This document shows positions 10,034 through 52,755 of a DNA stretch of 64,000 nucleotides, in pieces. Under the pieces are notes generated by a model. The model was given only the letters and a program-made list of their open reading frames with translations. It was not told where the DNA came from and ran no database searches. Numbering within the stretch: position 1 is the stretch's first letter; each line of letters opens with the position of its first letter. Both the position numbers and the translations under genes were made by a program. The stretch is from a phage, in the sequence record PX068456.1; one strand, 5' to 3'.

Positions 10034-10112
10034 TGGAGGCGGGAGTAGGATTTGAACCTACGATCTCCAGCATATGAAACTGGCGAGGACGACCAGACTC
10101 CTCTATCCCGCG
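10034..10112 (-). tRNA. tRNA-Met (anticodon CAT)
   Basis: encoded CCA, T-arm gtagg/atttgaa/cctac, anticodon loop TTCATAT, D-loop with GG, U8-A9; pair 1-72 is C-C. Confidence 0.6.
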
Positions 10113-10127
10113 CAATCTGTAGTAATT

Positions 10128-10203
10128 TGGTTGATAGTAAGAGAATCGAACTCTTCTCGCAATGCCTTATGAAAGCACTCGAAACGCCAGCTTCACACTA
10201 TCA
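10128..10203 (-). tRNA. tRNA with anticodon CAT (second Met, initiator or Ile2-type)
   Basis: encoded CCA, perfect acceptor stem tgatagt/actatca, T-arm aagag/aatcgaa/ctctt, anticodon loop TTCATAA; D-arm atypical. Confidence 0.5.
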
Positions 10204-10291
10204 ATGGCTAACCCTTTATAACCCGTCTTGGCGTGGTATCCTTAACAGGATGGTAGATATCCGTTGCAAACCCTATGATATCTCTTAGATA

Positions 10292-10376
10292 TGGTGGCTA
10301 AGGTGAGACTCGAACTCACAATCCCTTGGGGCAATACGTTCTAAGCGTATCGTGTATACCATTCCACCACTTAGCC
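10292..10376 (-). tRNA. tRNA-Leu (anticodon TAG), type II
   Basis: encoded CCA, acceptor ggctaag/cttagcc, T-arm gtgag/actcgaa/ctcac, anticodon stem atacg/cgtat with loop CTTAGAA, 14-nt variable arm. Confidence 0.65.
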
Positions 10377-10453
10377 ATAATAAATACACCACTGTAAGAA
10401 GCCTCAATGTGCTATTGACAGTTAACCAAGTCTACTCCTTGGATGGTGATATT

Positions 10454-10528
10454 TGGTGCAGAGAGATGGTAACGATCCATCCTTTCTACCTTTTCAGGGT
10501 AGCACTAATCCGTCTCAGCTATCTCTGC
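10454..10528 (-). tRNA. tRNA-Phe (anticodon GAA), non-canonical T-loop
   Basis: encoded CCA, perfect acceptor gcagaga/tctctgc, T-stem gatgg/ccatc with loop ATCGTTA, anticodon stem ctacc/ggtag with loop CTGAAAA. Confidence 0.5.
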
Positions 10529-10533
10529 AAATT

Positions 10534-10609
10534 TGGTCAGTGCGGCAGGACTCGAACCTGCGACCCGAAGCATCCAAAGCTCCCACGCTACCAACTGCGC
10601 TACGCACTG
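10534..10609 (-). tRNA. tRNA-Pro (anticodon TGG)
   Basis: encoded CCA, acceptor cagtgcg/cgcactg, T-arm gcagg/actcgaa/cctgc, anticodon loop TTTGGAT. Confidence 0.65.
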
Positions 10610-10616
10610 TAAATAC

Positions 10617-10691
10617 TGGCTGGAGATCTAGGAATCGAACCTAGTCATCACGACTTCAAAGGCCGTTGCCTTCCCACTAGGCTAATCTCCA
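10617..10691 (-). tRNA. tRNA-Gln (anticodon TTG)
   Basis: fully parsed cloverleaf: acceptor TGGAGAT, D-stem GCCT/AGGC, anticodon stem-loop ACGGC-CTTTGAA-GTCGT, T-arm CTAGG-TTCGATT-CCTAG, discriminator G, encoded CCA. Confidence 0.7.
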
Positions 10692-10790
10692 ATAAAACTA
10701 AAAATCACTTAAAAAGAACCGCTAGAGTTTGAAGGAGAAAACCATGAGCGAAAAGAGAAATTTTCTCTAGCGATTCCATTTAAATAATCT

Positions 10791-10865
10791 TGGAGCGAGT
10801 AACAGGACTTGAACCTGCACCTGGAGGGTGGAAACCTCATATGCTACCATTAACACTATACCCGC
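10791..10865 (-). tRNA. tRNA-Gly (anticodon TCC)
   Basis: encoded CCA, acceptor with one GU pair, T-loop acttgaa, anticodon loop TTTCCAC, D-loop with GG. Confidence 0.6.
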
Positions 10866-10920
10866 TTAACAATATTACTCTAACATATTATTAGCCCCTT
10901 TGTCAAGAGGCTTTTGATAT

Positions 10921-11244
10921 TTATTTTAAAATAGTAGATGCACCACGTCTGTTTAGATATGCAATAGTAAAATCCAAATCACCTATTTCTTCAGGTTCCC
11001 ACTGACCTTCTAAACCATAACAAGAACAATGATATGCGTGTACTTCATAAAACAAAGATGTTTTCATATCATAAAAATAAACGTGAGATTCACCTTCATA
11101 ATATGCACAATCATAAGTGGCAGAAAGAATTACAATGTTATCCTTATCTAACTCTACTTCATAATATCTTTCAACATCTTCAATATCATCAAAACCATCG
11201 AAAACATTGATATTAAAATATTTCTCTAACTCTTTTTCTGTCAC
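10921..11244 (-). CDS. hypothetical protein embedded in the tRNA array
   Basis: 107-aa ORF between tRNA genes, same strand. Confidence 0.45.
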   Translation of the reverse strand: MTEKELEKYFNINVFDGFDDIEDVERYYEVELDKDNIVILSATYDCAYYEGESHVYFYDMKTSLFYEVHAYHCSCYGLEGQWEPEEIGDLDFTIAYLNRRGASTILK

Positions 11245-11267
11245 ATATACTCCTTTAGAGTTAAAAT

Positions 11268-11342
11268 TGGTGCTCCCACAAGGACTCGAACCCTGATAAG
11301 TTGCTTACAAGGCAACCGTAATAGCCGTTATACGATAGGAGC
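11268..11342 (-). tRNA. tRNA-Thr (anticodon TGT)
   Basis: encoded CCA, acceptor gctccca/taggagc, T-arm caagg/actcgaa/ccctg, perfect anticodon stem gttgc/gcaac with loop CTTGTAA. Confidence 0.65.
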
Positions 11343-11419
11343 AAAATATTTGCTTGGTAGGATTTGATACCTACAATTCTAGAAAATTCTAGAGGTTTCT
11401 ATTAACTCTACAAGCACTA

Positions 11420-11504
11420 TTTGGCGATGGATCAAGGATTTGAACCTTGCTAGAACTTTCGTTCACGGATTAACAGTCCGTCGCCCAACCACTAGGCCAA
11501 TCCA
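11420..11504 (-). tRNA. type II (Ser-like architecture) tRNA whose anticodon reads GTT
   Basis: encoded CCA, discriminator G, perfect acceptor gatggat/atccatc, 3-bp D-stem, perfect anticodon stem acgga/tccgt with loop CTGTTAA, 15-nt variable arm forming a GAAC/GTTC hairpin. Confidence 0.45.
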
Positions 11505-11511
11505 TCTTTAA

Positions 11512-11598
11512 TTTGGTGCAGGTAGTTGGACTCGAACCAACGAAGCCCCGAAGGGCAGGAGATTTACAGTCTCCAGCAATTGCCGCTATGCGATACCT
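11512..11598 (-). tRNA. tRNA-Tyr (anticodon GTA), type II
   Basis: encoded CCA, T-arm gttgg/actcgaa/ccaac, perfect anticodon stem ggaga/tctcc with loop CTGTAAA, 16-nt variable arm. Confidence 0.65.
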
Positions 11599-11603
11599 AC
11601 GTG

Positions 11604-11679
11604 TTTGGTACATCGTGAAGGATTCGAACCTTCGACCTTGGAGTTAAAAGCCCCTTGCTCTACCAACTAAGCTAACGAT
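11604..11679 (-). tRNA. tRNA-Lys (anticodon TTT)
   Basis: encoded CCA, perfect acceptor acatcgt/acgatgt, T-arm gaagg/attcgaa/ccttc, anticodon loop CTTTTAA, D-loop AGTTGGTA. Confidence 0.65.
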
Positions 11680-11815
11680 GTATAAATTATCTTTAAAATA
11701 GCCAGTGTTTGCGGCACTTGACTATGAAGTATTAGGGTATCGGTAAGATGGTGGAGGCCATCTGCCGAAAGTTTACTCTATTAAAGTAAGATTACAAGCT
11801 ACATTAAAGATAACT

Positions 11816-11901
11816 TGGCGGTAGATGTAGGACTTGAACCTACACGCCGTTTCCGACGACAGTTTAGCAAACTGTTGTGGCTACCATTTCACCAATCTAC
11901 C
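11816..11901 (-). tRNA. tRNA-Ser (anticodon GCT), type II
   Basis: encoded CCA, discriminator G, perfect acceptor ggtagat/atctacc, T-arm gtagg/acttgaa/cctac, anticodon stem acagt/actgt with loop TTGCTAA. Confidence 0.65.
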
Positions 11902-11909
11902 GTTCTTAA

Positions 11910-12110
11910 TTATTCAAAACAACCGGAATCTTTTTGTTCTGCTTTTACCATACGAATATTTTTACCATCTTCAGATTGTTGAAGATTAGAATACTCATAA
12001 ACAACTTTATTATCTACAATCTTAACTCCGGTAACAACCTGTCCAATAGTTTTATAATTCATAAAGCTCCTAGTTGAATTTGGAGGAAGATAATGGAGTC
12101 GAACCATCAC
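11910..12110 (-). CDS. hypothetical small protein embedded in the tRNA array
   Basis: 66-aa ORF; its 3' region may overlap the tRNA-Ser(TGA) call, so one of the two may be wrong. Confidence 0.3.
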   Translation of the reverse strand: MMVRLHYLPPNSTRSFMNYKTIGQVVTGVKIVDNKVVYEYSNLQQSEDGKNIRMVKAEQKDSGCFE

Positions 12111-12170
12111 CGTATCGCTACAATGGGCCAGGGTTCAAACCTGGTTGCGCACCGCTGCGCCCTACCTTCC
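12081..12170 (-). tRNA. tRNA-Ser (anticodon TGA), type II, about 90 nt
   Basis: encoded CCA, T-loop agtcgaa, anticodon stem ccagg/cctgg with loop TTTGAAC, about 19-nt variable arm; D-arm parse uncertain. Confidence 0.45.
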
Positions 12171-12233
12171 CGTTATCATACTTTAAATCTAACATAAAAC
12201 TATCTTGCTTGTCAAGTAGTTTTTAAAACTTTT

Positions 12234-12315
12234 TGGTCGGGGTGACAGGATTCGAACCTGCATACTCCAATTACTCGGTTAACGCCTGATTAGAAGTCAG
12301 GTGAGATACACCCCG
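12234..12315 (-). tRNA. tRNA-like, anticodon arm reads TCT (Arg) but no normal D-arm and 23 nt between anticodon and T arms
   Basis: encoded CCA, perfect acceptor cggggtg/caccccg, T-arm acagg/attcgaa/cctgc, stem-loop cctga/CTTCTAA/tcagg. Confidence 0.4.
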
Positions 12316-12384
12316 TTTTCACAGTAACTATAACAAAAAACTAAGTGAATGTCAAGATATTTTTACTAAAATTATTATTTAAAT

Positions 12385-12493
12385 TGAAGCCTAGTTATGG
12401 AATCGAACCATATTTCGTATTTAGTTAGACAAAGCGGTCTAACATATTTTTCAGGCTTTGATGGCCTCGGAATTACCAAATACCCTACTAGGC
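12385..12493 (-). tRNA. tRNA-like element or pseudogene: good 3' half, 5' acceptor complement only about 100 nt away
   Basis: T-arm tatgg/aatcgaa/ccata and acceptor strand gcctagt present, no encoded CCA; matching actaggc at 12487-12493. Confidence 0.25.
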
Positions 12494-12495
12494 GT

Positions 12496-12581
12496 TGGTG
12501 CAAGTGGAGGGATTCGAACCCTCAATCATTTAAGCGTTGCGTTTTAAGCACAATGTGTATCACCAATTCCACCACACTTGC
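12496..12581 (-). tRNA. tRNA-Leu (anticodon TAA), type II
   Basis: encoded CCA, perfect acceptor gcaagtg/cacttgc, T-arm gaggg/attcgaa/ccctc, anticodon loop CTTAAAA, 13-nt variable arm. Confidence 0.65.
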
Positions 12582-12695
12582 ATATAGGAGATGCATAGCA
12601 CCTCCTTTTAAATGGTGGTTCCCCAGGGTTACAATCCCTGCCCTCGACACTTATGAGGTGTGCGCTCTCGTCAGTGAGCTATGGAACCTTGAATA

Positions 12696-13435: not shown

Positions 13436-15169
13436 TTAGTCAACCTGGATGGTTCCCATAGTACGAAGAACCTCTACGTCAACACGGTTGCGGATATCAG
13501 TAAATGTTTCATCACGTCCTTCTACTTGTGGTGTAATAACCTTACCATTCTTGAAGATAACTTGTAACTCATTGTCTTCATCCTGGATATCTTTAAAAGA
13601 AAGATTATCTACAAGAGAAAGATTACCATTGGTATCCTTAACAACCTTAATAAAACCTTTTGCAGAGCGTTTACCAGGATCAGTTTTAGGCTCCTTACTT
13701 ACCAAAATTTCGTGTTCACCGATGATGCTACCTGTTGCTTTAACAGCAAAACCAAAAGTATCTCGTGTATTGAACTGATAAGTATAACTACCAACACCAA
13801 ATACAATATTGGAAGCTGCAAAACCTTTCTTCTTCAGTCGGCGTAAGATCTCGTGTTCTCGTTCAACAGTAATAGAATCACCATAAATCATACCGATATG
13901 CTGATCAAGAACCTTGTAGCCTTTTCGGTTGATAGTACCACCAAACACTTCCCAAAGGATTTGAATAGAACCTACTGCTTCACAATAAGGAATCTCATAA
14001 GTTTCATCAATGCAATCAGCAACACTGCAATCCTGAAGAACATTGTAATACTTATTAACATCAGCCAAATGAACTACTTCAGTGGCTGTCGCAATACCAT
14101 TATTTAAGAGGTCTTCATAGTTATCAAAAGATTCAACATTGTATCCTGCAACAACTTTAACCGGATCTCCTGAATCTGGACGAATAACAAGACGACCATT
14201 TCGTGACATAATGGAATCTTTCAATTCTACCAGAATGCGAGTCAATACAGCCCAATAGTCATAAGAGTCTGCTACATATGAACAAAAACCTTCTGGAACA
14301 ATTTCTTCGATATAACGACGAAGAAACTCTTTTTCTGCTACATAACGAAGCCCATCTACATCATCTTTAAGATGTGGGAAATGTTTCTTCAGATCTTCAA
14401 CAATAGCTCCAATGTTAGTCGTTGCTACTGAATGTTCTGTTGCCGGAATCGAACCTGCAACAAACTGATCATAATCAATACCATAATAATCATGCACAGT
14501 TTCAATAGCCAGAATATTATCTGTTCCTGTGAACGATGCCAAGTGAGCGATACCACTCTTATAACCATCTTCGATATTACTTAAACCACGTAGGCTAAAA
14601 TCATGACACTGGAAGTTAACGTGATCAATATTATCACACGTTGCCATCGCATATGCCATAGCGATACGCTTATACTGAAAAGCTGCTGTGGCATTAGTCA
14701 TTGTCTTCCAAGTTTCATCTGACAACAGTGTTTCCACATAGTTAGTTAACCAAAAGAATTTTTCTAAAGTATTATGCACAGTAAATACAGGAACACCAAT
14801 AGGACACAAAACACCCTCTGGCAGAGATCGAACTTCCAGCGGAAGATAACCTAAGTCGTGCAATTCTCCCCAACATTCAGCAGAAGGAGCAGAAGCACCT
14901 AATGCATTTTTAGACATACGATAAAATTTATTTACTGCTGCACTACGAGACATTTTAAAGAAGCTATCCCACATAGTTACAAGAGCATCAGTGACTGCTC
15001 GACGAATACCTAAAACAATCACACCACGTGCTTCACGATCTGCATAGTGTGCAAAGTTTTTATCATTACGAGGAGTTAAATTAGAGAAAATAAGTTTTGT
15101 ATTTTGGTTGTACATCTGCTTGTGACCAGGTTTGTACCAATCAGTAGCAAAAGGTGCAAAAATATTCAT
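13436..15169 (-). CDS. nadV: nicotinamide phosphoribosyltransferase family protein (NAMPT/NadV-like; alternatively a nicotinamide ADP-ribose transferase, Namat)
   Basis: 577 aa, NAMPT-family length; adjacent to a PRPP-synthetase-like gene on the same strand. Confidence 0.8.
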   Translation of the reverse strand: MNIFAPFATDWYKPGHKQMYNQNTKLIFSNLTPRNDKNFAHYADREARGVIVLGIRRAVTDALVTMWDSFFKMSRSAAVNKFYRMSKNALGASAPSAECWGELHDLGYLPLEVRSLPEGVLCPIGVPVFTVHNTLEKFFWLTNYVETLLSDETWKTMTNATAAFQYKRIAMAYAMATCDNIDHVNFQCHDFSLRGLSNIEDGYKSGIAHLASFTGTDNILAIETVHDYYGIDYDQFVAGSIPATEHSVATTNIGAIVEDLKKHFPHLKDDVDGLRYVAEKEFLRRYIEEIVPEGFCSYVADSYDYWAVLTRILVELKDSIMSRNGRLVIRPDSGDPVKVVAGYNVESFDNYEDLLNNGIATATEVVHLADVNKYYNVLQDCSVADCIDETYEIPYCEAVGSIQILWEVFGGTINRKGYKVLDQHIGMIYGDSITVEREHEILRRLKKKGFAASNIVFGVGSYTYQFNTRDTFGFAVKATGSIIGEHEILVSKEPKTDPGKRSAKGFIKVVKDTNGNLSLVDNLSFKDIQDEDNELQVIFKNGKVITPQVEGRDETFTDIRNRVDVEVLRTMGTIQVD

Positions 15170-15240: not shown

Positions 15241-16134
15241 TTAAAAATTCCACACGTATGGAGATACAATTTGTTGTTGCAAATCTGACTGATTCTTAAC
15301 AAGAACACCAGAATCTTCTTGGATGTTATCTTCCCACACATTAAGAGAATGAATGCAGTCAAAGTGCTCACTTAACTCTTTAAGACCTTTAGAAAAGATA
15401 CCGTGCGTAACATATAGCTCAATCTTACCTGCGTTACGAGCACGTAGCACTTTAGCCAATTCGATAAAAGTTCTACCACCATCACAGATATCATCTACGA
15501 TCATCAGGTTACGCTTATTGAAATCCTGTACAGAAATGTCTGTACGAACAATAGCACCTGTTGCGGTATCTCTAACCTTCTCTGCACAGAACACATCTAA
15601 AGACATTTTCTTAGATAATTTAAATATTTTCTTAAGAGCACCACCATCAGGGCTAACAAGAGCAAAATTCTCCATACGTAACTTCCACTTTAAAGTTTCG
15701 TAAGCAATCTCTTCTTGAGGTATTACACAGAGTCTGTCAAACACTGCTGGAGTAACATCACTATGCGGATCAGCAACGATAACACGTGAGAAATTTAATG
15801 AATTAATTATAGAAGCAAATGCTTTAACTCCGAATGCTTCCCCAGGCTCACACACTCTGTCTTGTCGTGCATACGGCACATACAACATGAGTAAATCAAC
15901 ACAATATGGTTTATGATATAGCATATTGTCCAATGCATTCTTAGTCATAACCAAAGTCATCAAGTCTTTAGCAGATCTTACTTCTAAAGTGAGTAAGATT
16001 CTGTCTGTAGTATGATTGAAACCTGATAGATTCGTATCTAACTGAACATGTTGTTCTCCACCAGAGAATGTAAACACTTTAACGTCTACATCAGTAACAT
16101 AACAGTCAACACCATGCAGAATACTAACTTTCAT
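15241..16134 (-). CDS. prs: ribose-phosphate pyrophosphokinase family protein (Prs-like; alternatively an ADP-ribose pyrophosphokinase, Adps)
   Basis: 297 aa with PRPP-binding-loop-like motif MIVDDICDGGRTF. Confidence 0.8.
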   Translation of the reverse strand: MKVSILHGVDCYVTDVDVKVFTFSGGEQHVQLDTNLSGFNHTTDRILLTLEVRSAKDLMTLVMTKNALDNMLYHKPYCVDLLMLYVPYARQDRVCEPGEAFGVKAFASIINSLNFSRVIVADPHSDVTPAVFDRLCVIPQEEIAYETLKWKLRMENFALVSPDGGALKKIFKLSKKMSLDVFCAEKVRDTATGAIVRTDISVQDFNKRNLMIVDDICDGGRTFIELAKVLRARNAGKIELYVTHGIFSKGLKELSEHFDCIHSLNVWEDNIQEDSGVLVKNQSDLQQQIVSPYVWNF

Positions 16135-18667: not shown

Positions 18668-19026
18668 TGTGCACTACTAATCAACATGATATTTGTTACC
18701 AACCTCTTACTTGGATTGGTGAGGATCACTATGCTCAACGTGTTATAGTCTGCGCTGCGAATAAGTATATTCTCAACAATGGCGAAGAGTTAATTATTCC
18801 TTGTGTTAGGCATGCAAATCCTGTACTATCTGCACAACTTAATGTTTTAAAAGATGCAGGATTGATTGGTAAACTGTTTTGCTTACCTGATAATCAAGGG
18901 TTTATTGATCAGTATTATAACTGGTGGAGTCGCAAAGATGCTTATATCATTGCAGATAACGCCAAACAAATTAACTACGAAAGAAATGGTCACGACAGTG
19001 AACTATTCAGCGAGGGATTATACTAA
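18664..19026 (+). CDS. hypothetical protein
   Basis: 120-aa ORF, ATGA overlaps. Confidence 0.5.
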   Translation: MMCTTNQHDICYQPLTWIGEDHYAQRVIVCAANKYILNNGEELIIPCVRHANPVLSAQLNVLKDAGLIGKLFCLPDNQGFIDQYYNWWSRKDAYIIADNAKQINYERNGHDSELFSEGLY

Positions 19027-19577
19027 TGTTTATTACAAGTGATTTGCATTTTATGCACAAACGTATCCGAGAGTTTGCTCCTGAATATCGCCCGTGGGAA
19101 GATATGGAGCATATGACAGAAGCACTGATCGAAGCATGGAATAAATGTGCCACAACACCAGGAGTAAAGATGTACCATCTTGGGGACTTCTGTTTCGGGA
19201 CTGAAGAAGATACCCGTAAGATTGCTTCCCGTCTCCAAGGGGATATTACTTACTGTGTTGGGAACCATGATTACAGTAAACACCGAGAAGTGCTTGCAGA
19301 ATATGGCGAGGTGGTGTATTATGATGAAGTGAAATATCAGAAACTGTTCTTCGTCTTAAGCCATTACCCTATGGCTTCCTGGAATAAACAAGGGCATGGA
19401 TCAATCATGCTACACGGGCACTCTCACGGATCATTCCCTGATCATTTGTATGGGAGAATGTTGGATGTTGGTTGGGACGCACACGGAAAAATCTTGCATT
19501 TTGACGAAATCATCTCTATTATGGATAAGCGTGATATTGTTGTTGTAGACCATCATAAGATAATCAAAGGAGATTAA
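19026..19577 (+). CDS. metallophosphoesterase (calcineurin-like phosphatase)
   Basis: metal-binding motifs GDFCFG and VGNHDY, His-rich C-terminus. Confidence 0.7.
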   Translation: MFITSDLHFMHKRIREFAPEYRPWEDMEHMTEALIEAWNKCATTPGVKMYHLGDFCFGTEEDTRKIASRLQGDITYCVGNHDYSKHREVLAEYGEVVYYDEVKYQKLFFVLSHYPMASWNKQGHGSIMLHGHSHGSFPDHLYGRMLDVGWDAHGKILHFDEIISIMDKRDIVVVDHHKIIKGD

Positions 19578-19578
19578 G

Positions 19579-20511
19579 GTGGCTAAGTTCAATTGTGATG
19601 ACCTGATTGCAAAAGGTTTAGTGCATAAAAAAGAAGTTAAATCTGGAGAGTATGCTGGTCTTGCTGTACTTAAATACAAAAACAATGTATTCTGGGACAA
19701 CTTGTGGGACGTAGACAAACGCCTTCTAGATTGTCGTGGGTTGGTTGTTGACTCAGAAGACAATGTTGTTATTTGGCCTTTTACTAAAATCTTTAATCGT
19801 TTTGAGAATGGTACAGATCTTCCAGCAGACCATCTTGTAGATGCTGTCCGTAAAGTAAACGGTTTTATGGCATCTGTAGGTGTGTACAAAGGGCAACTTA
19901 TTGTATCAACAACAGGGAGCCTAGAGTCAGATTTTGCAATTCTTGCCAAGAACCATATTGTTTCCGAGTGTGATGACATAGAATATTTCATTAAGTGGAC
20001 AGAAAGTGCAAAAGCAACTTTCCTTTTTGAAATCTGTGATCCTTCTGATCCACATATTGTTGAAGAAGAACCAGGCGCATACTTAATTGGAGCAAGGATT
20101 CAAAATCCTGATGGGACAAGTTTCATGCTACCCGAAGGTGTGCTTGATGGGATTGCATCTATTACAAAATTTAAACGTCCTGAAGTTTATCCGATGATTA
20201 AATTTTCAGATGTTGTTGAAATGTCTAAACATTGTAAGCACGAAGGGTTTGTTATTCGTGAAACAAACTATCCGTTTAACTTGCTGTTAAAGATTAAGTC
20301 ACCATATTATCTTGCTAAGAAATTCCTTATGCGTGGTGGCAATAAGAAGTGGGATATGATTTGGGACAACCCAAAAAATGCTAAACAAATTGTTGACGAA
20401 GAATATTATACTTTGCTAGAATGGCTTCGAAACAACTTTACTAAGACTCAATGGGCTGCTTTAGATCCACAAGAGCGACGTAAAGAAATAGAAAACTTCT
20501 TTGGAGGCTAA
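19579..20511 (+). CDS. Rnl-family ATP-dependent polynucleotide ligase, probable RNA ligase
   Basis: GTG start after aaggag; nucleotidyltransferase motif I KVNGF and motif V EGFVIRE. Confidence 0.55.
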   Translation: MAKFNCDDLIAKGLVHKKEVKSGEYAGLAVLKYKNNVFWDNLWDVDKRLLDCRGLVVDSEDNVVIWPFTKIFNRFENGTDLPADHLVDAVRKVNGFMASVGVYKGQLIVSTTGSLESDFAILAKNHIVSECDDIEYFIKWTESAKATFLFEICDPSDPHIVEEEPGAYLIGARIQNPDGTSFMLPEGVLDGIASITKFKRPEVYPMIKFSDVVEMSKHCKHEGFVIRETNYPFNLLLKIKSPYYLAKKFLMRGGNKKWDMIWDNPKNAKQIVDEEYYTLLEWLRNNFTKTQWAALDPQERRKEIENFFGG

Positions 20512-20916
20512 ATGAAACAACTTATCATTTTACGTGGTGTTTCAGGTGCAGGTAAATCTACAGTAGCAGAAATTATTTCTGAAGGTTATTGGCCTATCTG
20601 TGAGGCAGATCAATATCATTACACAGAAAGTGGTGTTTACGATTGGAAGCCAGAGAATGTAGGTAAAGCACACGCATGGTGTCAGAGTATTGTTCGTGAT
20701 GCTATGGCATCTAATATTAAAAAGATTATTGTCTCTAACACTTCAACCACAGAGAAAGAACTTAAACCTTATTTAACTCTTGCTGAAGAGTTTGGTTATC
20801 AAGTTATCTCCTTAGTTGTTGAAAATAGGCACGGTAACGACTCAATTCATGAGGTTCCACAACATATTCGTGATCAGCAAGAGAAACGTCTTCGCAGTTC
20901 ACTTAAGCTACAATAA
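20512..20916 (+). CDS. P-loop polynucleotide kinase-like protein
   Basis: N-terminus MKQLIILRGVSGAGKST resembles the T4 Pnk kinase domain. Confidence 0.6.
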   Translation: MKQLIILRGVSGAGKSTVAEIISEGYWPICEADQYHYTESGVYDWKPENVGKAHAWCQSIVRDAMASNIKKIIVSNTSTTEKELKPYLTLAEEFGYQVISLVVENRHGNDSIHEVPQHIRDQQEKRLRSSLKLQ

Positions 20917-35507: not shown

Positions 35508-35509
35508 TA

Positions 35510-35972: not shown

Positions 35973-35985
35973 GGAGGATAGTAGA

Positions 35986-36183: not shown

Positions 36184-37169
36184 AATACTTAGTAACAGGT
36201 GGTTTAGGCTTTATTGGAAGTGCGGTAGTTCGTTTCCTGGCTAAAAATACTAAGAATGATATTTACGTTATAGATAAATGGGGTTACGCTTCAGATCCTA
36301 GAAATTTATCAGAAACACCCAATGTAAAGTTTTGTCGTGTTGACTTGACAAATGCGCAGTTAACTGCTAAGATTGTGGCAGATGTTAATCCAGATTATAT
36401 AATGCATCTTGCAGCAGAAAGTCACGTAGATAATTCAATAGCATCACCGAGTGTTTTTATAAATTCAAATATTGTTGGGACATTTAATCTCCTAGAAGCT
36501 GTTCGTTTAATGGGAGATAAATCAAATCTTAAAATGTTCCATCATATTTCAACAGATGAAGTATATGGTGATATGGAAGAAGGGGATTATCCGTTTACAG
36601 AACAGAATCCTTATAAGCCAAGTAGTCCATATGCTGCATCTAAGGCAGCAAGCGATCATTTGGTAAGAGCGTGGCATCGTACTTATGGTATTCCGACAGT
36701 TATAACAAATTGTTCAAATAATTTTGGAGCATATCATCATCCAGAAAAACTAATACCTAAAACGATAACAAATATCTTGATGCATAAACCAATCCCTGTT
36801 TATGGTAATGGTCTTCAAGTAAGAGACTGGTTATACGTTGACGATCACGCAGAAGCATTACACCTAGTAGTAACTAAAGGCAAATCTGGAGAAACATATA
36901 ATATTGGGAGCAGAAACCCTAGAACTAATATTGATGTAATCTATATGATTTGTGATTATATGGATGCGGTGTATCCATCTGAAACAGATGCTTGTAGCCT
37001 CATTGAGATGGTTACAGATAGACCTGGGCATGATTTAAGATACGAAGTGAATCCTTATAAGATTGAAAAGGAATTAGGGTGGAAAGCTAAAGGCACATTT
37101 GAAGAAAAACTTTATTCAACCATTGATTGGTATGTAGATAACAAAGAGTGGTGGGAAAATAAAGTTTAA
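36180..37169 (+). CDS. rmlB: dTDP-glucose 4,6-dehydratase
   Basis: N-terminal [10 protein letters not shown] Rossmann motif and YAASKAASD active-site motif. Confidence 0.85.
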
Positions 37170-37177
37170 GGAGGAGT

Positions 37178-38047
37178 ATGAAAGGTATTATCTTAGCAGG
37201 TGGTAGTGGAACAAGACTTTACCCAGTTACTAAAGGGGTTAGTAAACAACTATTACCAATTTACGATAAACCTATGATTTATTATCCACTCTCTGTCCTA
37301 ATGCTTTCTGGAATTAGGGAAATACTAATAATTACAACACCAGAAGATCAAATTAATTTTGTAAATCTTCTAGGTGATGGTTCTTCTTTTGGTATTTCCC
37401 TACAGTATGCAATACAAGAAAGCCCGAAAGGTTTAGCAGAAGCGTTTATTATTGGTGAGAGCTTTATTGGCGAAGATTCTGTAGCACTTGTGCTAGGTGA
37501 TAATTTATTCTTTGGTCAGAGTTTTGGTAGCATTTTAGATTCTGCTAAAGAACATATTGAAAAGAATGGTGGAGCTAATATTTTTGGGTATCACGTAAAT
37601 GATCCTGAAAGATTTGGTGTTGTTGAGTTTGATTCTGAAGGTACAGTGGTGAGTATTGAAGAAAAACCAAAAACACCAAAAAGCAACTATGCAGTTACAG
37701 GCTTGTACTTTTACGATAATTCTGTTATACAGAAAGCTAAGAGCGTTAAACCTTCTGCTAGAGGGGAGTTAGAGATTACAGATATAAATGAGATGTACTG
37801 GAAAGAAAAGACTTTACGTGTCTGTAAACTAGGAAGAGGTTTCACTTGGCTGGATACAGGAACACATGAAAGTCTTATGGAAGCATCTCAATTTGTTCAT
37901 GCAATAGAAAAGCAACAAGGTATGAAGGTTGCATGCCTAGAAGAGATTGCTTTTAAAAATGAATGGATTACTTTAGACTCTGTAAAAAGTTCTGGAGAGG
38001 TTTTAAGTAAAACAGACTACGGTAAGTATTTACTTAAATTAAAATAA
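37178..38047 (+). CDS. rmlA: glucose-1-phosphate thymidylyltransferase
   Basis: N-terminal [16 protein letters not shown] signature. Confidence 0.9.
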
Positions 38048-38059
38048 AGGGGGAATTAA

Positions 38060-38614
38060 ATGATTCAAGCAACAAAAATCGAAGATTTGTTGATCATTCA
38101 ACCTGACGTTTACGGAGATGAACGTGGCTTTTTCTTAGAAAGTTTTAATCAGGCTTTATATGATCAATACATAGGTAAACAAAACTTTGTCCAGGATAAC
38201 CACTCACGTTCTATTCGAGGAGTTCTACGTGGGCTTCATTTTCAAAAGAAAAACCCACAAGGGAAGTTAGTACGTTGTGTTCGTGGTGAAGTTTATGATG
38301 TTGCTGTAGATATTAGGGTTGGTAGTCCAACATTTGGAGAATGGGTAGGTGTTCTCTTATCTGAAAAGAATAAAACACAATTTTGGATTCCTCCTGGTTT
38401 CGCTCATGGCTTTGTTGTGATTAGCGACATTGCTGATTTTGAATATAAATGTACAGAATATTACGATCCGACTTCAGAGTGTAGTCTTGCGTGGAATGAT
38501 CCAGATATCAATATAGATTGGGGTTTTGATTTAATCTTTAATGATATTAATTTTAAACCTATCTTGTCACAAAAAGATCAGCAAGCCAAAACACTAAAGG
38601 AGATCATATTTTGA
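38060..38614 (+). CDS. rmlC: dTDP-4-dehydrorhamnose 3,5-epimerase
   Basis: 184-aa cupin with RGFFLESF and RGLHFQ motifs. Confidence 0.8.
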   Translation: MIQATKIEDLLIIQPDVYGDERGFFLESFNQALYDQYIGKQNFVQDNHSRSIRGVLRGLHFQKKNPQGKLVRCVRGEVYDVAVDIRVGSPTFGEWVGVLLSEKNKTQFWIPPGFAHGFVVISDIADFEYKCTEYYDPTSECSLAWNDPDINIDWGFDLIFNDINFKPILSQKDQQAKTLKEIIF

Positions 38615-48513: not shown

Positions 48514-49502
48514 TGAAAGTTTTAAGTCTTTTTGATGGTATGTCAGGAGGAATGCTTGCACTAAAAAGTGCAGGTATTGAAGTAGATAAGTATTATGCCT
48601 CAGAATTGGACAAATTTGCCATAGCTGAAAGCCAAGCCAATTTTCCAGACATTATTCAATTAGGGGATGTTACAAAATGGAGAGAATGGGATATCCCGTG
48701 GGGAGAAATTGATCTTTTGTTAGGTGGTAGCCCGTGCCAAGGCTTCTCTTCTTCTGGTAAGGGTTTGAACTTTCAAGATCCGCGATCTAAACTGTTCTTT
48801 GAATATGTTGAAATTCTTGAACATATTAAAAAGTTTAACCCTAATGTTAAGTTCATGCTTGAAAACGTTAAGATGAAGGTGGAGTGGGAAAACGTGATCA
48901 CAAGTTACTTAGGTGTTGATCCCGTATTCATTAACTCCGCAGATTTCACGGCACAGAATAGACAACGTTTATACTGGTGCAATTGGGAAATAAAGCCTTG
49001 GGATATTACCAATGAAGTGTTGCAAGATATCATTGAAGATGATAGTATCGTAGACAGAGATAAGGCTTATTGCATAGATGCAAATTATGCCAAAGGTGGT
49101 AATATAGAACAGTATTTTGAAAAGAGTCGCAGACAACTGGTTTTTTATCCAGCAGCAATATATGGGCGTAGAATTAATGAAAATGGCAAACGTAGTACAT
49201 CTAAAACTGATCGTTTGGTACATTGCTTGGAAGTTCAGGACAGTGAAAAAACTCGTTGCCTCACGACTGTGCCGAAAGACGTACTATTAGCTTACATTCC
49301 ACCTGGAAGATATCTGGATGCCTTTGAAAAATTGAGTGAAGGTGTGCATTATAGAAAGTTAACGGTTAAAGAGTGTTGCCGCTTACAAGGTGTTCCAGAT
49401 GATTACTTTAAAGTGAGTAGTAACACACAAGCATATAAGATGTTAGGTAATGGTTGGACTATACCTGTCATTGCACATATTCTTAAGTGTATGGAGGAAT
49501 GA
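48513..49502 (+). CDS. DNA (cytosine-5) methyltransferase
   Basis: motif I FDGMSGG, motif IV GGSPCQGFS, motif VI ENV. Confidence 0.9.
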   Translation: MKVLSLFDGMSGGMLALKSAGIEVDKYYASELDKFAIAESQANFPDIIQLGDVTKWREWDIPWGEIDLLLGGSPCQGFSSSGKGLNFQDPRSKLFFEYVEILEHIKKFNPNVKFMLENVKMKVEWENVITSYLGVDPVFINSADFTAQNRQRLYWCNWEIKPWDITNEVLQDIIEDDSIVDRDKAYCIDANYAKGGNIEQYFEKSRRQLVFYPAAIYGRRINENGKRSTSKTDRLVHCLEVQDSEKTRCLTTVPKDVLLAYIPPGRYLDAFEKLSEGVHYRKLTVKECCRLQGVPDDYFKVSSNTQAYKMLGNGWTIPVIAHILKCMEE

Positions 49503-49625
49503 TGGAAACATTGTGGAAAGGCTGGAAGACTGCTCTGATAGCTTTTATAATTCCATTAACTTTTCTTGGTTGGTGTTTTTGGGAATTTATCTTTTGGTTA
49601 ATTTCCCATATACATTGGGGGTAAC

Positions 49626-50237
49626 ATGACTCAAAAAGTTGCATATCAAGTAGATCGTGAAGATGGTGAAGGTAGTGTTGTAGTTTTTGATACACATGGT
49701 CTTGCAGCAAGACGCAAAGGCGCTTGTATGCTGGACATTGGTGGTGAAGATGAATACTGCACTGTACGTAGAGTAAAAGAATTTGATCAATACGCTGAAA
49801 AAGGTTTTGTACCTGCGAAAGCACTATTAGAAGCTGGATGGTGGATACCTAGCGCACATGATTATGATATTTTGGAATCAGATACAGACGATTTTAATAG
49901 TGAGAATTTTGTTTTTTCTCTGGATGAAAAATGCGTTTGGAAAGATTGGGATGAAATGGAACGCCATGCTTATTTTATAAACGAAGCATTAGATCGTAAA
50001 ACTTGGTTTGAAAATACAGTTAAAGCCGCGTATCCTCAATTTACTTTTACAGAGTTTTGGGGTGGCCCACACCATATTACCCATGTAGCATACTTCGAGT
50101 TCCCAGGTTCACGCTATAAAGGTACTGTCTATTGGGATTGGGAAGAGGACAAAGAACCTTCTGCTCAAGACTTCCGTTGCTATGTTTGTCAAGGTGATCA
50201 AGAAGACCTTGACAACTACCTTAAAAGTCTGGTATAA
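49626..50237 (+). CDS. hypothetical protein
   Basis: 203-aa ORF. Confidence 0.5.
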   Translation: MTQKVAYQVDREDGEGSVVVFDTHGLAARRKGACMLDIGGEDEYCTVRRVKEFDQYAEKGFVPAKALLEAGWWIPSAHDYDILESDTDDFNSENFVFSLDEKCVWKDWDEMERHAYFINEALDRKTWFENTVKAAYPQFTFTEFWGGPHHITHVAYFEFPGSRYKGTVYWDWEEDKEPSAQDFRCYVCQGDQEDLDNYLKSLV

Positions 50238-50253
50238 TCCGTAAAACTTAACC

Positions 50254-50279
50254 AAAGCCCCCAACCAGGGGCTTTATTT
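50254..50279 (+). terminator. rho-independent terminator
   Basis: agcccccaaccaggggct hairpin plus ttattt. Confidence 0.55.
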
Positions 50280-50292
50280 GTCTGGAGGATAT

Positions 50293-50847
50293 ATGGGTTT
50301 TGATGATATGTTATTATATGAGGAGGCTTGTGTGAAAGAAGCTATGGCTTTACCAGTTTTATCTATTGATATTACAACAGTAGACACTTTTTCAGATTGT
50401 GAAACGTGTGGATCGTATTCATCTATTGTACATGAAGTCAGTGGGGATTTAGGCACTTACGAAGATGGAGATTATGCAAGTTGTTTAGGTGATAATCGAG
50501 ATGGTGAAGTGGCGAATGTTGCAAACTGGATTGCTTCTAAGTTAAAAGAAAGAAATCGTCCGTTCCCTAATCTTCTTACACCAGAAGCTATGCTTAAAGC
50601 TGAAGAAGAGATGTATGATTATGGTGATAAAGTAGCTCATGATTACAATGATCCTAATTATAAAAAATTGAGTGATAAGTATTGGGAACTAGCTAATGCT
50701 TATGATAAATACTACTCTACAGAAAACATTGTTAAATTGTTTTTAGATTTTGGAGTAGAAATTAATTGGGATTTCGAAGAGGAAGAGCGTTACGACGCAT
50801 CTTCTTGGGATGATGATTACGAAGAGGATATTGAATGCGAAGAGTAA
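50293..50847 (+). CDS. highly acidic hypothetical protein
   Basis: start at the ATG after ggagga; Asp/Glu-rich throughout. Confidence 0.5.
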   Translation: MGFDDMLLYEEACVKEAMALPVLSIDITTVDTFSDCETCGSYSSIVHEVSGDLGTYEDGDYASCLGDNRDGEVANVANWIASKLKERNRPFPNLLTPEAMLKAEEEMYDYGDKVAHDYNDPNYKKLSDKYWELANAYDKYYSTENIVKLFLDFGVEINWDFEEEERYDASSWDDDYEEDIECEE

Positions 50848-51647
50848 TTTTTGTCAGTGGTGCAGGTTTAAGTGCAGACAGTGGGATTCGAACATTCCGA
50901 ACAGACACAGATAGTGGTCGTGCTTTATGGGAAGAATATGATTTAGAAGAGGTCTGCGATATTGGAGCTTTCCAAGCAGGTTATCGTGTGAGAACATCTC
51001 CAGATCTTCCAGTGGTTGGTGGTGTAGACGAAAACGGTATGGATTTGTATGCCAAAACACACGAATTTTATAACAAAAGACGTGTTGAGCTTAAAGATGT
51101 ACAACCTAATGCTGCACATATTCAAATAGCAAAGTGGTTTAAGGAATATCCTAACCAAGTAGTAAACTTGACAACAAACGTTGATGATCTACTAGAGCGA
51201 GCAGGTGTAGACAGAGATTCGGTTATTCACGTGCACGGATATCTTCCTGAAGTAGTTTACCGTATGCACCCTGGGGATTACAAAACACTGGTAGATATTG
51301 GTTACAACAGTATAAACATAGATGATTATAACTGGGTGAAGCCTAATGTTGTATTTTTTGGTGAGGCTGCACCTTTGTATGCAGATATGGCTCACTTGTT
51401 TGATACTTTGACCATGCAAGATTTGGTTGTTGTAGTAGGATGTTCAAACCAAGTTATCAATTTTAATTGGGAATTATTCCCTGCACTTAATATGGGTACA
51501 AAAATGATTGTTGTTAACCCAGGAATTAATTACGAAGAAACTCTTCTTTACGAAGATAGAGGAGTCTTTGTTTATCGAGAAAAAGCCGCAGATGCTTTTA
51601 GCAATCCTGCTTTCATAAAAATGATAGAAGATCATTTGACTAAATAA
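50835..51647 (+). CDS. Sir2-family protein (sirtuin-like NAD-dependent deacylase / ADP-ribosyltransferase)
   Basis: N-terminal VIFVSGAGLSADSGIRTFR motif, TTNVDDL and catalytic-His HG (IHVHGYL) motifs. Confidence 0.75.
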   Translation: MRRVIFVSGAGLSADSGIRTFRTDTDSGRALWEEYDLEEVCDIGAFQAGYRVRTSPDLPVVGGVDENGMDLYAKTHEFYNKRRVELKDVQPNAAHIQIAKWFKEYPNQVVNLTTNVDDLLERAGVDRDSVIHVHGYLPEVVYRMHPGDYKTLVDIGYNSINIDDYNWVKPNVVFFGEAAPLYADMAHLFDTLTMQDLVVVVGCSNQVINFNWELFPALNMGTKMIVVNPGINYEETLLYEDRGVFVYREKAADAFSNPAFIKMIEDHLTK

Positions 51648-51654
51648 CTTAACC

Positions 51655-51678
51655 AAGGGGGCGAAAGCCCCTTTTCTT
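51655..51678 (+). terminator. rho-independent terminator
   Basis: gggggcgaaagcccc hairpin plus ttttctt. Confidence 0.6.
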
Positions 51679-51691
51679 ATAGGAGAATATT

Positions 51692-51949
51692 ATGACCACA
51701 GAACAAATCGTTAAAGACCATTTTATGATGCACTACGTTTATTACTTCAATAACAATCAACAGAAAGGTGAGGGATTTTGTTATCTATCCGCACAACAAG
51801 GTTTTGGTATCCGTCAAGCAGATATTAACGGGGCAGTGGCTGGGATTACAAAAGGCTTGGTTGAAAACCTTAAAGATAATGTTGTTGTTGTCCCAACGTG
51901 CATCTCTTATCTCTCAACCTGCCCTGAAGAAGATTTTATGCATTCTTAA
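51692..51949 (+). CDS. hypothetical protein
   Basis: 85-aa ORF, last plus-strand gene before the strand switch. Confidence 0.5.
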   Translation: MTTEQIVKDHFMMHYVYYFNNNQQKGEGFCYLSAQQGFGIRQADINGAVAGITKGLVENLKDNVVVVPTCISYLSTCPEEDFMHS

Positions 51950-52016
51950 AACCTCCTGTAACGCATTCTAACGAACTTTTTATTTTAGTAATACGTTTCC
52001 CTACCTAATGCAAACA

Positions 52017-52046
52017 AAAGCCCCTAGAAGCGATTCTAGGGGCTTT
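52017..52046. terminator. bidirectional terminator at the convergent junction
   Basis: aaagcccctagaagcgattctaggggcttt hairpin with A/T runs on both sides. Confidence 0.6.
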
Positions 52047-52124
52047 ATTTTAGTCTTCTGTAAAATATCCTATGACAATAATGATAAAGATGATTAACAC
52101 TACAATACTCTCTAGTAAAGTCAT

Positions 52125-52346
52125 CTATAGCTCTCGTTCATATAGTTCAATTATCAATTCATCCTCTGCTGTTATTGTACCAATTTGCCAAGTGTGAAGA
52201 TAAACCTCTGTATAAGAGTGTATCTTACTATCTAACAAGCACAGCCACGTATTGTTGCTTACCTTTTCTTGAATATGAACCTTAACCACGAAAGGGTGAG
52301 GGTTATCTACTAAGAAACCAATACTACCTTCTACAACTACAGACAT
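52125..52346 (-). CDS. hypothetical protein
   Basis: 73-aa ORF. Confidence 0.45.
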   Translation of the reverse strand: MSVVVEGSIGFLVDNPHPFVVKVHIQEKVSNNTWLCLLDSKIHSYTEVYLHTWQIGTITAEDELIIELYEREL

Positions 52347-52405
52347 AATACCTCCTATTGTTTATGGTAAAAGTGTTTATAACAGATAAAGAGCGTATAT
52401 ACAAG

Positions 52406-52427
52406 AAAACCCGCCGGAGCGGGTTTA
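52406..52427 (-). terminator. rho-independent terminator
   Basis: aacccgccggagcgggtt hairpin followed on the minus strand by a T run. Confidence 0.5.
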
Positions 52428-52431
52428 TGTG

Positions 52432-52755
52432 TTATACAATGTGTTTTGTTTTAACGTGCGAAGATTTAAAAATCTTATTATGTAATGCAATACAGTTATC
52501 ACGGAACACATAGTAGTTAACAACATCTGGTTTATCAACACAGAGTGTAGCCACGACTTTCATAGGTACAGATACATTCTCACGAATAGTAACACTACCT
52601 TTCAAACGTTCAGATGAAATGTGAATCAAACCTTCTTTTTCATCAATGATAACTTCTTTAACATTTTTGAAATTATAACAAGAGTTATCAACATAAGATA
52701 CCCTTGCTTTTGTTTGCTTCTGTTTAGGACGAGAACCAGTGTTTATTTTTTGCAT
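52432..52755 (-). CDS. hypothetical protein
   Basis: 107-aa ORF. Confidence 0.5.
   Translation of the reverse strand: MQKINTGSRPKQKQTKARVSYVDNSCYNFKNVKEVIIDEKEGLIHISSERLKGSVTIRENVSVPMKVVATLCVDKPDVVNYYVFRDNCIALHNKIFKSSHVKTKHIV

Follow-up and report, generated by a model that had tools for sequence, protein, structure and literature searches.

The window analysed here is a stretch of 64,000 nucleotides of phage DNA (sequence record PX068456.1) from a phAPEC8-like E. coli myovirus, which shows 99% identity to Escherichia phage vB_EcoM_AMO3598 (Stephanstirmvirinae). The locus under study contains a sirtuin gene, two upstream genes for acidic proteins and several transcription signals:

49626..50237, + strand: gene for an acidic protein of 203 aa (PHROG 8514)
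50209..50238, + strand: sigma-70 promoter (TTGACA, 18 nt, TG-TATAAT; 12/12 consensus matches), 5' of the acidic-ORF/sirtuin pair
50254..50275, no strand assigned: G+C-rich hairpin, called as a terminator candidate on either strand, separating the upstream ORF from the acidic ORF
50293..50847, + strand: gene for an acidic protein of 184 aa (PHROG 9509)
50835..51647, + strand: phage sirtuin gene, encoding a zinc-less, class-III-like SIR2 protein of 270 aa (PHROG 2162)
51655..51673, + strand: hairpin resembling an intrinsic terminator, with a trailing T-run, immediately 3' of the sirtuin stop codon

The 184-residue protein is indeed highly acidic, as described in an earlier note on this DNA, with 47 Asp and Glu against 14 Lys and Arg residues, a net charge of -33 and a pI of 4.05. 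Residues C36-x-x-C39, C64 and C182 are invariant and the acidic tail is disordered. The 3' end of its ORF and the 5' end of the sirtuin ORF share 13 nt. The family occurs in phAPEC8-like phages alone (only 4 clusters in a set of 5.8 billion proteins). At two loci with a 100% identical sirtuin the acidic ORF has an earlier stop, and the two genes do not overlap. Given this lineage-specific distribution and inconstant overlap, a role as a conserved partner or regulator of the sirtuin was rejected. No neighbouring gene conserved across lineages was found beside the sirtuin; PHROG 8514 is the only neighbour family also located 5' of the sirtuin in two divergent loci. The terminator hairpins that were said to bracket the sirtuin are real, but the upstream one precedes the acidic ORF rather than the sirtuin, so that acidic ORF and sirtuin are bracketed as a pair. 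The consensus sigma-70 promoter points to transcription by the host RNA polymerase and hence to early expression, with the sirtuin gene probably transcribed jointly with that of the acidic protein.

The sirtuin ORF begins with ATG, preceded by the ribosome-binding site AGAGGA. Its product matches the Pfam SIR2 model PF02146 with 81 bits (cut-off 24, E 1.3e-22) and PHROG 2162 'Sir2' with an E-value of 1.3e-105. Judged by these sequence matches, which lie far above chance, it is an intact, bona fide SIR2-family gene. The motifs pointed out in the earlier note are all present, comprising the N-terminal NAD-binding motif (VIFVSGAGLSADSGIRTFR, residues 4-22), the N-x-D-D motif (N115-V116-D117-D118) and the catalytic histidine in IHVHGYL (I131-H132-V133-H134-G135-Y136-L137). 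The complete set of key residues consists of G9-A10-G11-x-S13, F21-R22, C41, Y79-x-x-R82-R83, T114-N115-V116-D117, H134-G135, V172, F175-G176-E177, G202-x-S204 and N228. The protein is already known, both from existing annotation, as GenBank holds an identical protein annotated "Sir2-like", and from published comparative genomics. Homologs are annotated in 984 phage records, including that of T5 (T5.102), over which the family is strongly conserved. Identities are 53% to T5.102, 56% to the Mydo protein and 47-62% over the rV5, Mydo and T5-like sirtuins. In the present searches the clade is seen almost only in phages; a cluster look-up of 10 representatives of the wider zinc-less 'TNVD' subclass gave hardly any names, one being a Neptunomonas MAG.

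Sequence and structure comparisons place the protein among the deacylases. The closest solved relative is E. coli CobB (phmmer E 1.5e-18; family profile E 3.7e-25), followed by Sir2-Af2, Sir2-Af1, SIRT5 and Sir2Tm. The AlphaFold model (pLDDT 88.8) has a Rossmann-fold large domain and a small domain that can be superimposed on those of solved sirtuins, and the best 50 Foldseek matches are all deacylase sirtuins, with CobB first (E 2.4e-16, TM 0.83). In the homology and structure search that the earlier note had proposed, class III deacylases (CobB, Sir2-Af1, SIRT5) thus rank well above SirTM or defence NADases, and by sequence and model the phage sirtuin looks most like the bacterial deacylase CobB, not like a defence NADase. 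The scores against the NCBIfam CobB/protein-deacylase models are far under the cut-offs (NF001753, 106.5 versus 243; NF040867, 86.6 versus 320), and the phage protein is therefore not a CobB ortholog.

In an alignment of 27 phage homologs with 58-92% identity to the window sirtuin, the NAD-binding and catalytic residues G9/A10/G11/S13, F21/R22, N115/D117 and H134/G135 are invariant in all 27, and the possibility that the catalytic histidine and NAD-binding residues might not be conserved, on which the earlier interpretation could have failed, is not borne out. The sirtuin family aligns to CobB in hhalign with a probability of 99.7%, up to residue 208. This alignment equates C41, Y79, R82, V116, H134, V172 and F175 with CobB A76, Y92, R95, I131, H147, V187 and F190, and all seven phage residues are invariant among the 27 homologs. 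The class III features, i.e. the Tyr-x-x-Arg motif (Y79/R82) and the residue at the SIRT5-A86/CobB-A76 position (C41), are therefore both present and invariant. A Y-x-x-R motif, combined with a small amino acid where CobB has A76, is reportedly the succinyl-/malonyl-lysine signature of SIRT5 and CobB (Du et al. 2011; Colak et al. 2013). According to PDB entry titles, engineered CobB variants with acyl selectivity carry their mutations at A76, Y92, I131 and V187.

Other parts of the protein deviate from the deacylase pattern. The zinc-binding cysteines of CobB (C155/C174/C176/C177) have no counterpart in the alignment, and no cysteine occurs between residues 135 and 172 of the phage sirtuin, which thus lacks the four-Cys structural zinc site. 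Instead of the canonical T-Q-N-[IV]-D, the phage protein contains T113-T114-N115-V116-D117, with an invariant threonine opposite CobB Q129. The proline of CobB V219-Y220-P221 has N209 as its positional equivalent, counted one residue beyond the end of the alignment; the family has either Asn or Asp there. The lost zinc site and the changed glutamine could fit a non-catalytic or decoy protein that, for example, captures immune signals derived from NAD+ or ADPR or that titrates host factors, and sponges for nucleotide signals are often encoded by phages (PMC9503650, general discussion). However, all catalytic and NAD-binding residues except this glutamine are invariant (58-92% identity to the query; 984 phage records), a pattern expected of an enzyme rather than a sponge, which makes a decoy very improbable.

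The exchange of Gln for Thr in QNxD and the divergent small domain might also have re-tuned the chemistry towards mono-ADP-ribosylation, in the manner of SirTM or SIRT4/6, of a protein or nucleic acid, by which a host target would be modified during takeover. ADP-ribosylation is known for some sirtuins (PMC4518038; PMC9503650), and one GenBank record names a homolog 'Sir2-like transferase'. The feature that defines SirTM is the replacement of the catalytic HG by QG (PMC4518038). This change is absent from the phage family, with its invariant H134-G135, and no macrodomain was found fused to the sirtuin, among its neighbours or in the annotated span of the window. A SirTM (class M) identity was rejected on these grounds, and a mono-ADP-ribosyltransferase activity in general appears improbable.

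Two further genes of the window bear on the use of NAD+:

13436..15169, - strand: NAMPT-like gene, classified as Namat of NARP1
15241..16134, - strand: Prs-like gene, classified as Adps of NARP1 (ADPR pyrophosphorylating enzyme)

Both genes are read in the same direction, next to each other, and lie 34.7-37.4 kb from the sirtuin, in agreement with the distance of about 35 kb given before. The Prs-like protein matches 90/92 residues of the EmilieFrey Adps entry and the NAMPT-like protein 71/71 residues of the 'Adps-associated' EmilieFrey entry (Osterman et al. supplement). The pair, described earlier as NAMPT/Prs-like and as genes of NAD+ synthesis, is in fact Adps and Namat of NARP1, a published anti-defence pathway in which NAD+ is rebuilt from ADPR and nicotinamide; classical PRPP/NMN salvage was rejected in favour of this phage-clade pair. 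NARP1 is near the sirtuin in rV5/Mydo-like phages, but neither Adps nor Namat occurs within 10 kb of the sirtuin in any of 31 T5-like loci.

Conceivably, the sirtuin could act in the same way as SIR2 effectors in bacterial defence systems, as an NAD+ glycohydrolase reducing the NAD+ of the host in order to shut it off or to exclude competing phages. NAD+ cleavage would be consistent with the SIR2 fold and with the intact residues N115, D117 and H134, and NARP1 could rebuild NAD+ from the products. On the other hand, such breakdown coupled to encoded restoration would be a futile cycle, and the absence of Adps and Namat within 10 kb of the T5-like sirtuins also counts against this reading. The only match to the PADLOC defence models, to PDC-S65 over 37 residues (E 0.0066, 13.8 bits), is not credible, and the sirtuin is a stand-alone 270-aa domain for which no fused or operonic sensor or oligomerisation partner (SLOG, HerA, STAND, TPR and similar) was found. 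An NADase role is accordingly considered quite improbable.

A further alternative is based on gene neighbourhoods. Iyer et al. 2022 (PMC9503650) defined a viral sirtuin clade (rV5, Mydo, SP15, Serratia BF) linked to genes for RNA ligase, cREC, kinase, MazG, HAD and 2H proteins, and proposed a KptA/Tpt1-like role in RNA repair, in which the ADP-ribose of NAD+ would be moved onto an RNA 2'-phosphate and released as ADP-ribose 1''-2'' cyclic phosphate. The 2'-phosphate would be one left by the healing of nuclease-cut tRNA or mRNA, with RNA ligase, kinase and phosphoesterase as partners. The chemistry of sirtuins, with attack at C1' followed by the 2'-OH, would be formally parallel to that of Tpt1. 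The window contains 16 tRNA genes and the following block:

19026..20916, + strand: RNA-repair-like block of a Metallophos_2 phosphoesterase, an Rnl1-type RNA ligase and an AAA_33 kinase-like protein

In Mydo/rV5-like phages the sirtuin is located inside such a block, and the Mydo gene is flanked by RNA ligase/AAA_33 genes on one side and a DNA ligase gene on the other. T5.102 adjoins nrdD in a promoter-to-terminator unit upstream of replication-protein genes, and three genes 3' of it T5.105 encodes a HAD_SAK_2 'Swiss Army Knife RNA repair' domain (E 4e-20). A HAD gene occurs in 28/31 T5-like loci, and RNA ligase, phosphoesterase and kinase genes in 11-12/13 rV5/Mydo-like loci, in each case at most 10 kb away from the sirtuin. 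It is this proximity to RNA-end-processing genes on which the published prediction rests. In the window and the other 5 phAPEC8-like loci, however, the sirtuin lies outside the block, at a distance of ~30 kb, and no RNA-end-processing gene is found within 10 kb of it. Only two lineages contribute to the linkage counts, and both have these genes in long co-directional blocks, so that adjacency is not very informative. The residues of the CobB/SIRT5 acyl-lysine pocket are all kept and, as a weak point, acidity is general in the family (pI 4.6-5.8, net charge -6 to -19), which is unusual for an RNA binder. Moreover, the T4-type Rnl1/kinase/phosphatase pathway is not known to leave a 2'-phosphate. 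A function in RNA repair is hence regarded as rather unlikely.

With a probability of about one half, the gene encodes a catalytically competent, early-expressed NAD+-dependent protein deacylase of class III (CobB/SIRT5) descent. The enzyme would most likely remove acyl groups from lysines of host or phage proteins, and the kept Tyr-x-x-Arg motif and small pocket residue suggest that acidic groups such as succinyl may be accepted besides acetyl. Each deacylation would use one NAD+ and produce nicotinamide and O-acyl-ADP-ribose, which may be recycled by the NARP1 pathway of the phage. The earlier view that the phage manipulates host NAD+, protein acylation or ADP-ribosylation thus stands in part, in that the protein groups with class III deacylases and not with SirTM or defence NADases. 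The loss of the four zinc cysteines, the invariant threonine in place of the QNxD glutamine and the change of the CobB proline to N209 count against a deacylase. In addition, restriction of T4 and lambda by the CobB of the host has been reported (PMC4271551), so that a CobB-like activity is not obviously beneficial to a phage. The zinc-less, Thr-for-Gln clade of T5-, rV5- and phAPEC8-like phages may tentatively be viewed as a re-purposed non-deacylase with a substrate other than protein, most concretely an RNA 2'-phosphate (as a sirtuin-fold Tpt1/KptA analogue in tRNA repair) or else a small ADPR-derived molecule whose products would enter NARP1, although this is rather unlikely.

About a thousand sequenced phages, among them the classical model phage T5, carry a sirtuin gene, and neither a report of activity nor any biochemical or experimental characterisation of a phage sirtuin was found in the literature searched. 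If the proteins are deacylases, these phages would reset the acylation of host proteins in the course of infection, which would be notable because host CobB is reported to restrict T4 and lambda; if they act in RNA repair, this would be new chemistry for the sirtuin fold. The gene is carried by tractable phages, i.e. T5 and the BASEL phages EmilieFrey and TrudiGerster, and its function is therefore directly testable.

Among known systems, CobB (class III; protein-lysine deacetylase/desuccinylase/lipoamidase; PDB entries 1S5P and 6RXJ) is the top match by both sequence and Foldseek, with 39% identity over 170 aligned profile columns and a similar size. The two proteins share the GAGxSxxSGIRTFR loop, Y-x-x-R, N-x-D, the catalytic histidine, V-x-x-F-G-E and G-x-S. 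Unlike CobB, the phage sirtuin lacks the zinc cysteines and has Thr for Gln in QNxD and Cys for Ala at A76. Its residues 47-70 form a variable insertion of 24 residues, its C-terminal third is divergent, and at the N-terminus the basic extension of CobB-L is absent. The defence SIR2 NADases (ThsA, DSR1/2, SIR2-HerA/Nezha, Avs5-SIR2) also have a SIR2 Rossmann fold and likewise use NAD+. The likeness to the RNA 2'-phosphotransferase Tpt1/KptA is a proposed functional analogy only (NAD+-dependent attack at ribose C1', 1''-2'' cyclic product), with no kinship in sequence or fold, and the phage family is acidic.

T5.102 and the clade of Iyer et al. 2022 (rV5, Mydo, SP15) belong to the same PHROG 2162 family as the window sirtuin, which shares with T5.102 and Mydo the zinc-less small domain, TNVD and YxxRR. 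In contrast to the loci of T5.102 and the viral clade, the window sirtuin has no RNA ligase, kinase, HAD or DNA ligase gene next to it and forms a pair with the gene of a lineage-specific acidic protein. The Vibrio schizoT4-like phages (KVP40, phiSt2, phiGrn1) also encode CobB-like sirtuins with a reported loss of the zinc site, described from in-silico and transcript data only (Skliros et al. 2016). With about 38-40% identity to the window sirtuin over the aligned region, these form a more distant branch. Their genomes, like the window, also carry NAD+ pathway genes, which are of the NARP2 type (Nampt and Nmnat) in the schizoT4-like phages and of NARP1 in the window.

The window belongs to an E. 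coli myovirus of phAPEC8-like type, within the Stephanstirmvirinae; over the 3 kb around the sirtuin gene, identity is 99.0% to Escherichia phage vB_EcoM_AMO3598 and 97–99% to dozens of further records. The open reading frame described in the earlier note as a phage Sir2-family protein, and all motifs quoted for it, are present, and a tRNA gene cluster lies elsewhere in the window:

50835..51647, + strand, sirtuin, 270 aa; Pfam SIR2, PHROG 2162
9812..12688, − strand, 16 tRNA genes (Met x3, Leu x2, Ser x2; one each Ile, Phe, Pro, Gln, Gly, Thr, Asn, Tyr, Lys)

The sirtuin matches Pfam SIR2 with 81 bits (cut-off 24) and PHROG 2162, 'Sir2 (NAD-dependent deacetylase)', with an E-value of 1.3e-105, and an identical protein of phage arall is annotated as 'putative Sir2-like protein'. 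By tblastn the family is found in 984 of 50,697 phage records, its carriers including T5 (T5.102, 53% identity), Mydo, rV5-like phages, Salmonella phage 7-11, Vibrio schizoT4-like phages and some jumbo phages. Given these matches, the existing annotation and the number of records, the observation is correct and concerns an ordinary gene that was annotated before. Four GenBank records (MG065645, MG065689, MG065639 and MG065656) bear the label 'Campylobacter phage', give C. jejuni as the host and are ~98% identical to the window phage over window 49500..52500; probably the host label is wrong or the sample was contaminated. In the annotated relative alia, the region equivalent to window ~35,200-38,600 (alia record 113523..116783) contains four dTDP-rhamnose pathway genes (rmlA/B/C/D-like), accompanied by nrdAB and by genes for thymidylate synthase and thymidine kinase.

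The sirtuin groups with the class III deacylases. E. coli CobB is its best solved relative, both with the single sequence (E 1.5e-18) and with the family profile (E 3.7e-25), followed by Sir2-Af2, Sir2-Af1, SIRT5 and Sir2Tm. A confident AlphaFold model built from 27 homologs (pLDDT 88.8, pTM 0.86) matches only deacylase sirtuins among the top 50 Foldseek hits in the PDB, with CobB first (E 2.4e-16, TM 0.83), and the PADLOC defence models give no credible match to the sirtuin. Between deacylase, SirTM and defence NADase, the comparison thus falls on the deacylase side by both sequence and structure, and the suggested resemblance to defence effectors needs correction. SirTM enzymes are defined by replacement of HG by QG and a linked macrodomain (PMC4518038); this identity is rejected, since H134-G135 (sirtuin numbering) is invariant and a macrodomain was not found nearby. 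The sirtuin falls far short of the cut-offs of the NCBIfam CobB models and so represents a divergent subfamily, as opposed to an ortholog of CobB.

Among 27 phage homologs with 58–92% identity to the window sirtuin, the catalytic His and the NAD-binding residues are conserved without exception. Invariant positions comprise G9/A10/G11/S13, S16/G17, F21/R22, C41, Y79, R82/R83, P91/N92/H95, T114/N115/V116/D117, H134/G135, K169/P170/N171/V172, F174/F175, E177, G202/S204 and N228. A profile alignment of the family to CobB (probability 99.7%) places H134 at the catalytic H147, Y79/R82 at Y92/R95, C41 at A76, V116 at I131, V172 at V187 and F175 at F190. In SIRT5 and CobB, the recognised signature for binding succinyl- or malonyl-lysine is Tyr-x-x-Arg combined with a small residue at position A76. 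CobB residues A76, Y92, I131 and V187 are the sites changed in engineered acyl-selective variants, according to PDB entry titles.

The NAD+ synthesis genes reported in the same genome are both real, although their nature is different from PRPP/NMN salvage:

15241..16134, − strand, Prs-like gene (Adps)
13436..15169, − strand, NAMPT-like gene (Namat)

Phage operons of this type were shown by Osterman et al. to be NARP1, in which Adps pyrophosphorylates ADP-ribose and Namat adds nicotinamide to give NAD+, countering the Thoeris, DSR1/2, SIR2-HerA and SEFIR defences; the supplementary tables list Adps and an 'Adps-associated' Namat for EmilieFrey (bioRxiv 10.1101/2024.02.11.579819). EmilieFrey is ~97% identical to the window in the sirtuin region, and the window proteins agree with its listed sequence prefixes at 90/92 (Adps) and 71/71 (Namat) residues. 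Because of this match the pair is assigned to anti-defence NAD+ reconstitution, and the salvage reading was dropped. Since nicotinamide and ADPR, the NARP1 substrates, are products or downstream products of sirtuins, recycling of sirtuin products by NARP1 is conceivable. The sirtuin has Adps and Namat as neighbours no more than 10 kb away in 8 of 13 rV5/Mydo-like loci, in none of 31 T5-like and in none of 6 phAPEC8-like loci; the linkage is not general across sirtuin loci.

The sirtuin gene is directly preceded by an ORF for a highly acidic protein:

50209-50238, sigma-70 promoter, perfect consensus with extended -10 element, upstream of the acidic ORF
50254-50275, terminator-like hairpin, upstream of the acidic ORF
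50293..50847, + strand, acidic ORF, 184 aa, net charge -33, pI 4.05
51655-51673, terminator, 3' of the sirtuin

The acidic ORF stop overlaps the sirtuin start by 13 nt. With promoter and hairpin upstream and a terminator downstream, the two genes look like a small unit read by host RNA polymerase, an arrangement that suggests early expression. The promoter is embedded in the 3'-terminal part of ORF 49626..50237, with the hairpin after it; a transcript would start only ~9 nt upstream of the hairpin, which is possibly a 5' stabiliser or attenuator. Among 54 related loci and the window, the acidic protein is confined to the 6 phAPEC8-like loci, and a database of 5.8 billion proteins has just 4 clusters of its family. 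Two loci have an identical sirtuin, and there the stop of the acidic ORF comes earlier, with no overlap between the two genes. A conserved sirtuin partner is ruled out by this restricted distribution, and the relevance attached to the acidic neighbour has to be revised. Its model (pLDDT 81) gave no meaningful structural match; in the acidic protein C36-x-x-C39, C64 and C182 are invariant, and residues 165-184 form a disordered poly-acidic tail. A second acidic protein, of 203 aa (PHROG 8514; window 49626..50237, and 8839..9501 and 9062..9736 in the divergent sirtuin-carrying loci L045 and L050), is the only neighbour family that these two loci have in common with phAPEC8-like ones, and it always lies upstream of the sirtuin in the same orientation.

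A role as protein deacylase is ranked first, with a probability of about 0.5. Ranked second, and rather unlikely, is a role in RNA repair, in which viral sirtuins would act like KptA/Tpt1 on RNA 2'-phosphates. Iyer et al. (2022) set apart a clade of viral sirtuins, with rV5, Mydo and SP15 named as carriers, and based this prediction on neighbouring RNA ligase, kinase, cREC, MazG, HAD, 2H and phosphoesterase genes (PMC9503650). RNA-repair-type neighbours are found in 28/31 T5-like and 11-12/13 rV5/Mydo-like loci, but these counts represent two lineages, each with its genes in long co-directional blocks. T5 encodes a HAD_SAK_2 'RNA repair' domain protein three genes downstream of the sirtuin, and in Proteus phage Mydo the sirtuin lies within an RNA-repair block, flanked on one side by the RNA ligase/AAA_33 genes and on the other by a DNA ligase gene, with NARP1 ~6 kb off. 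The equivalent block is present in the window:

19026..20916, + strand, RNA-repair-like block: Metallophos_2 phosphoesterase, Rnl1-type RNA ligase, AAA_33 kinase-like protein

However, the window sirtuin is relocated ~30 kb from it. This relocation, the two-lineage counts, the acidic character of the family throughout (pI 4.6-5.8) and the retained CobB/SIRT5 acyl-pocket residues place deacylation ahead of RNA repair; ADP-ribosyltransferase, NADase and decoy readings jointly share the remainder. In the T5 locus, T5.105 (L057 8142..8648) is labelled 'Sir2 (NAD-dependent deacetylase)' in RefSeq; this public annotation is wrong, as the protein is an RNA-repair HAD domain of the HAD_SAK_2 type (Pfam E 4e-20).

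For T4 and lambda, restriction by host CobB has been reported (PMC4271551), so it is not obvious what a phage would gain from carrying a CobB-like enzyme. No phage sirtuin characterised by biochemistry or genetics turned up in full-text literature searches; prior work consists of annotations, an in-silico and transcript study of Vibrio phages (PMC5107563) and the comparative-genomic RNA-repair prediction (PMC9503650). The earlier interpretation holds in that a predicted NAD+-using enzyme occurs in a phage that also appears to manage NAD+, with amendments to the nature of the NAD+ genes, the defence likeness and the acidic neighbour. The role of phage sirtuins is a worthwhile question, readily addressed in T5 or BASEL phages.

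Compared with CobB, the phage sirtuin has no counterparts of the zinc-binding residues C155, C174, C176 and C177, residues 135-172 being devoid of Cys, and the Gln of the QNxD motif is replaced by an invariant Thr. Zinc-site absence was noted before in KVP40-type Vibrio phage sirtuins (PMC5107563). When 1.84 billion representatives were searched exhaustively with the family profile, 99 proteins reached E ≤ 1e-30. Of the top 150 representatives (P0125-P0274, 50% clustering), 41 have neither Gln at position 114 nor zinc Cys, 81 have both, 16 have only the zinc Cys and 8 only the Gln; a non-Gln residue (Thr, Ser or Ala) thus goes with zinc-Cys loss, with 24 discordant cases and in raw counts that ignore shared ancestry. 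Tyr-x-x-Arg is present in about three quarters of each of these groups. Relative to CobB, the phage family also contains a variable 24-residue insertion (residues 47-70), which occurs in phAPEC8-, rV5- and T5-like versions and is missing from Mydo-like sirtuins.
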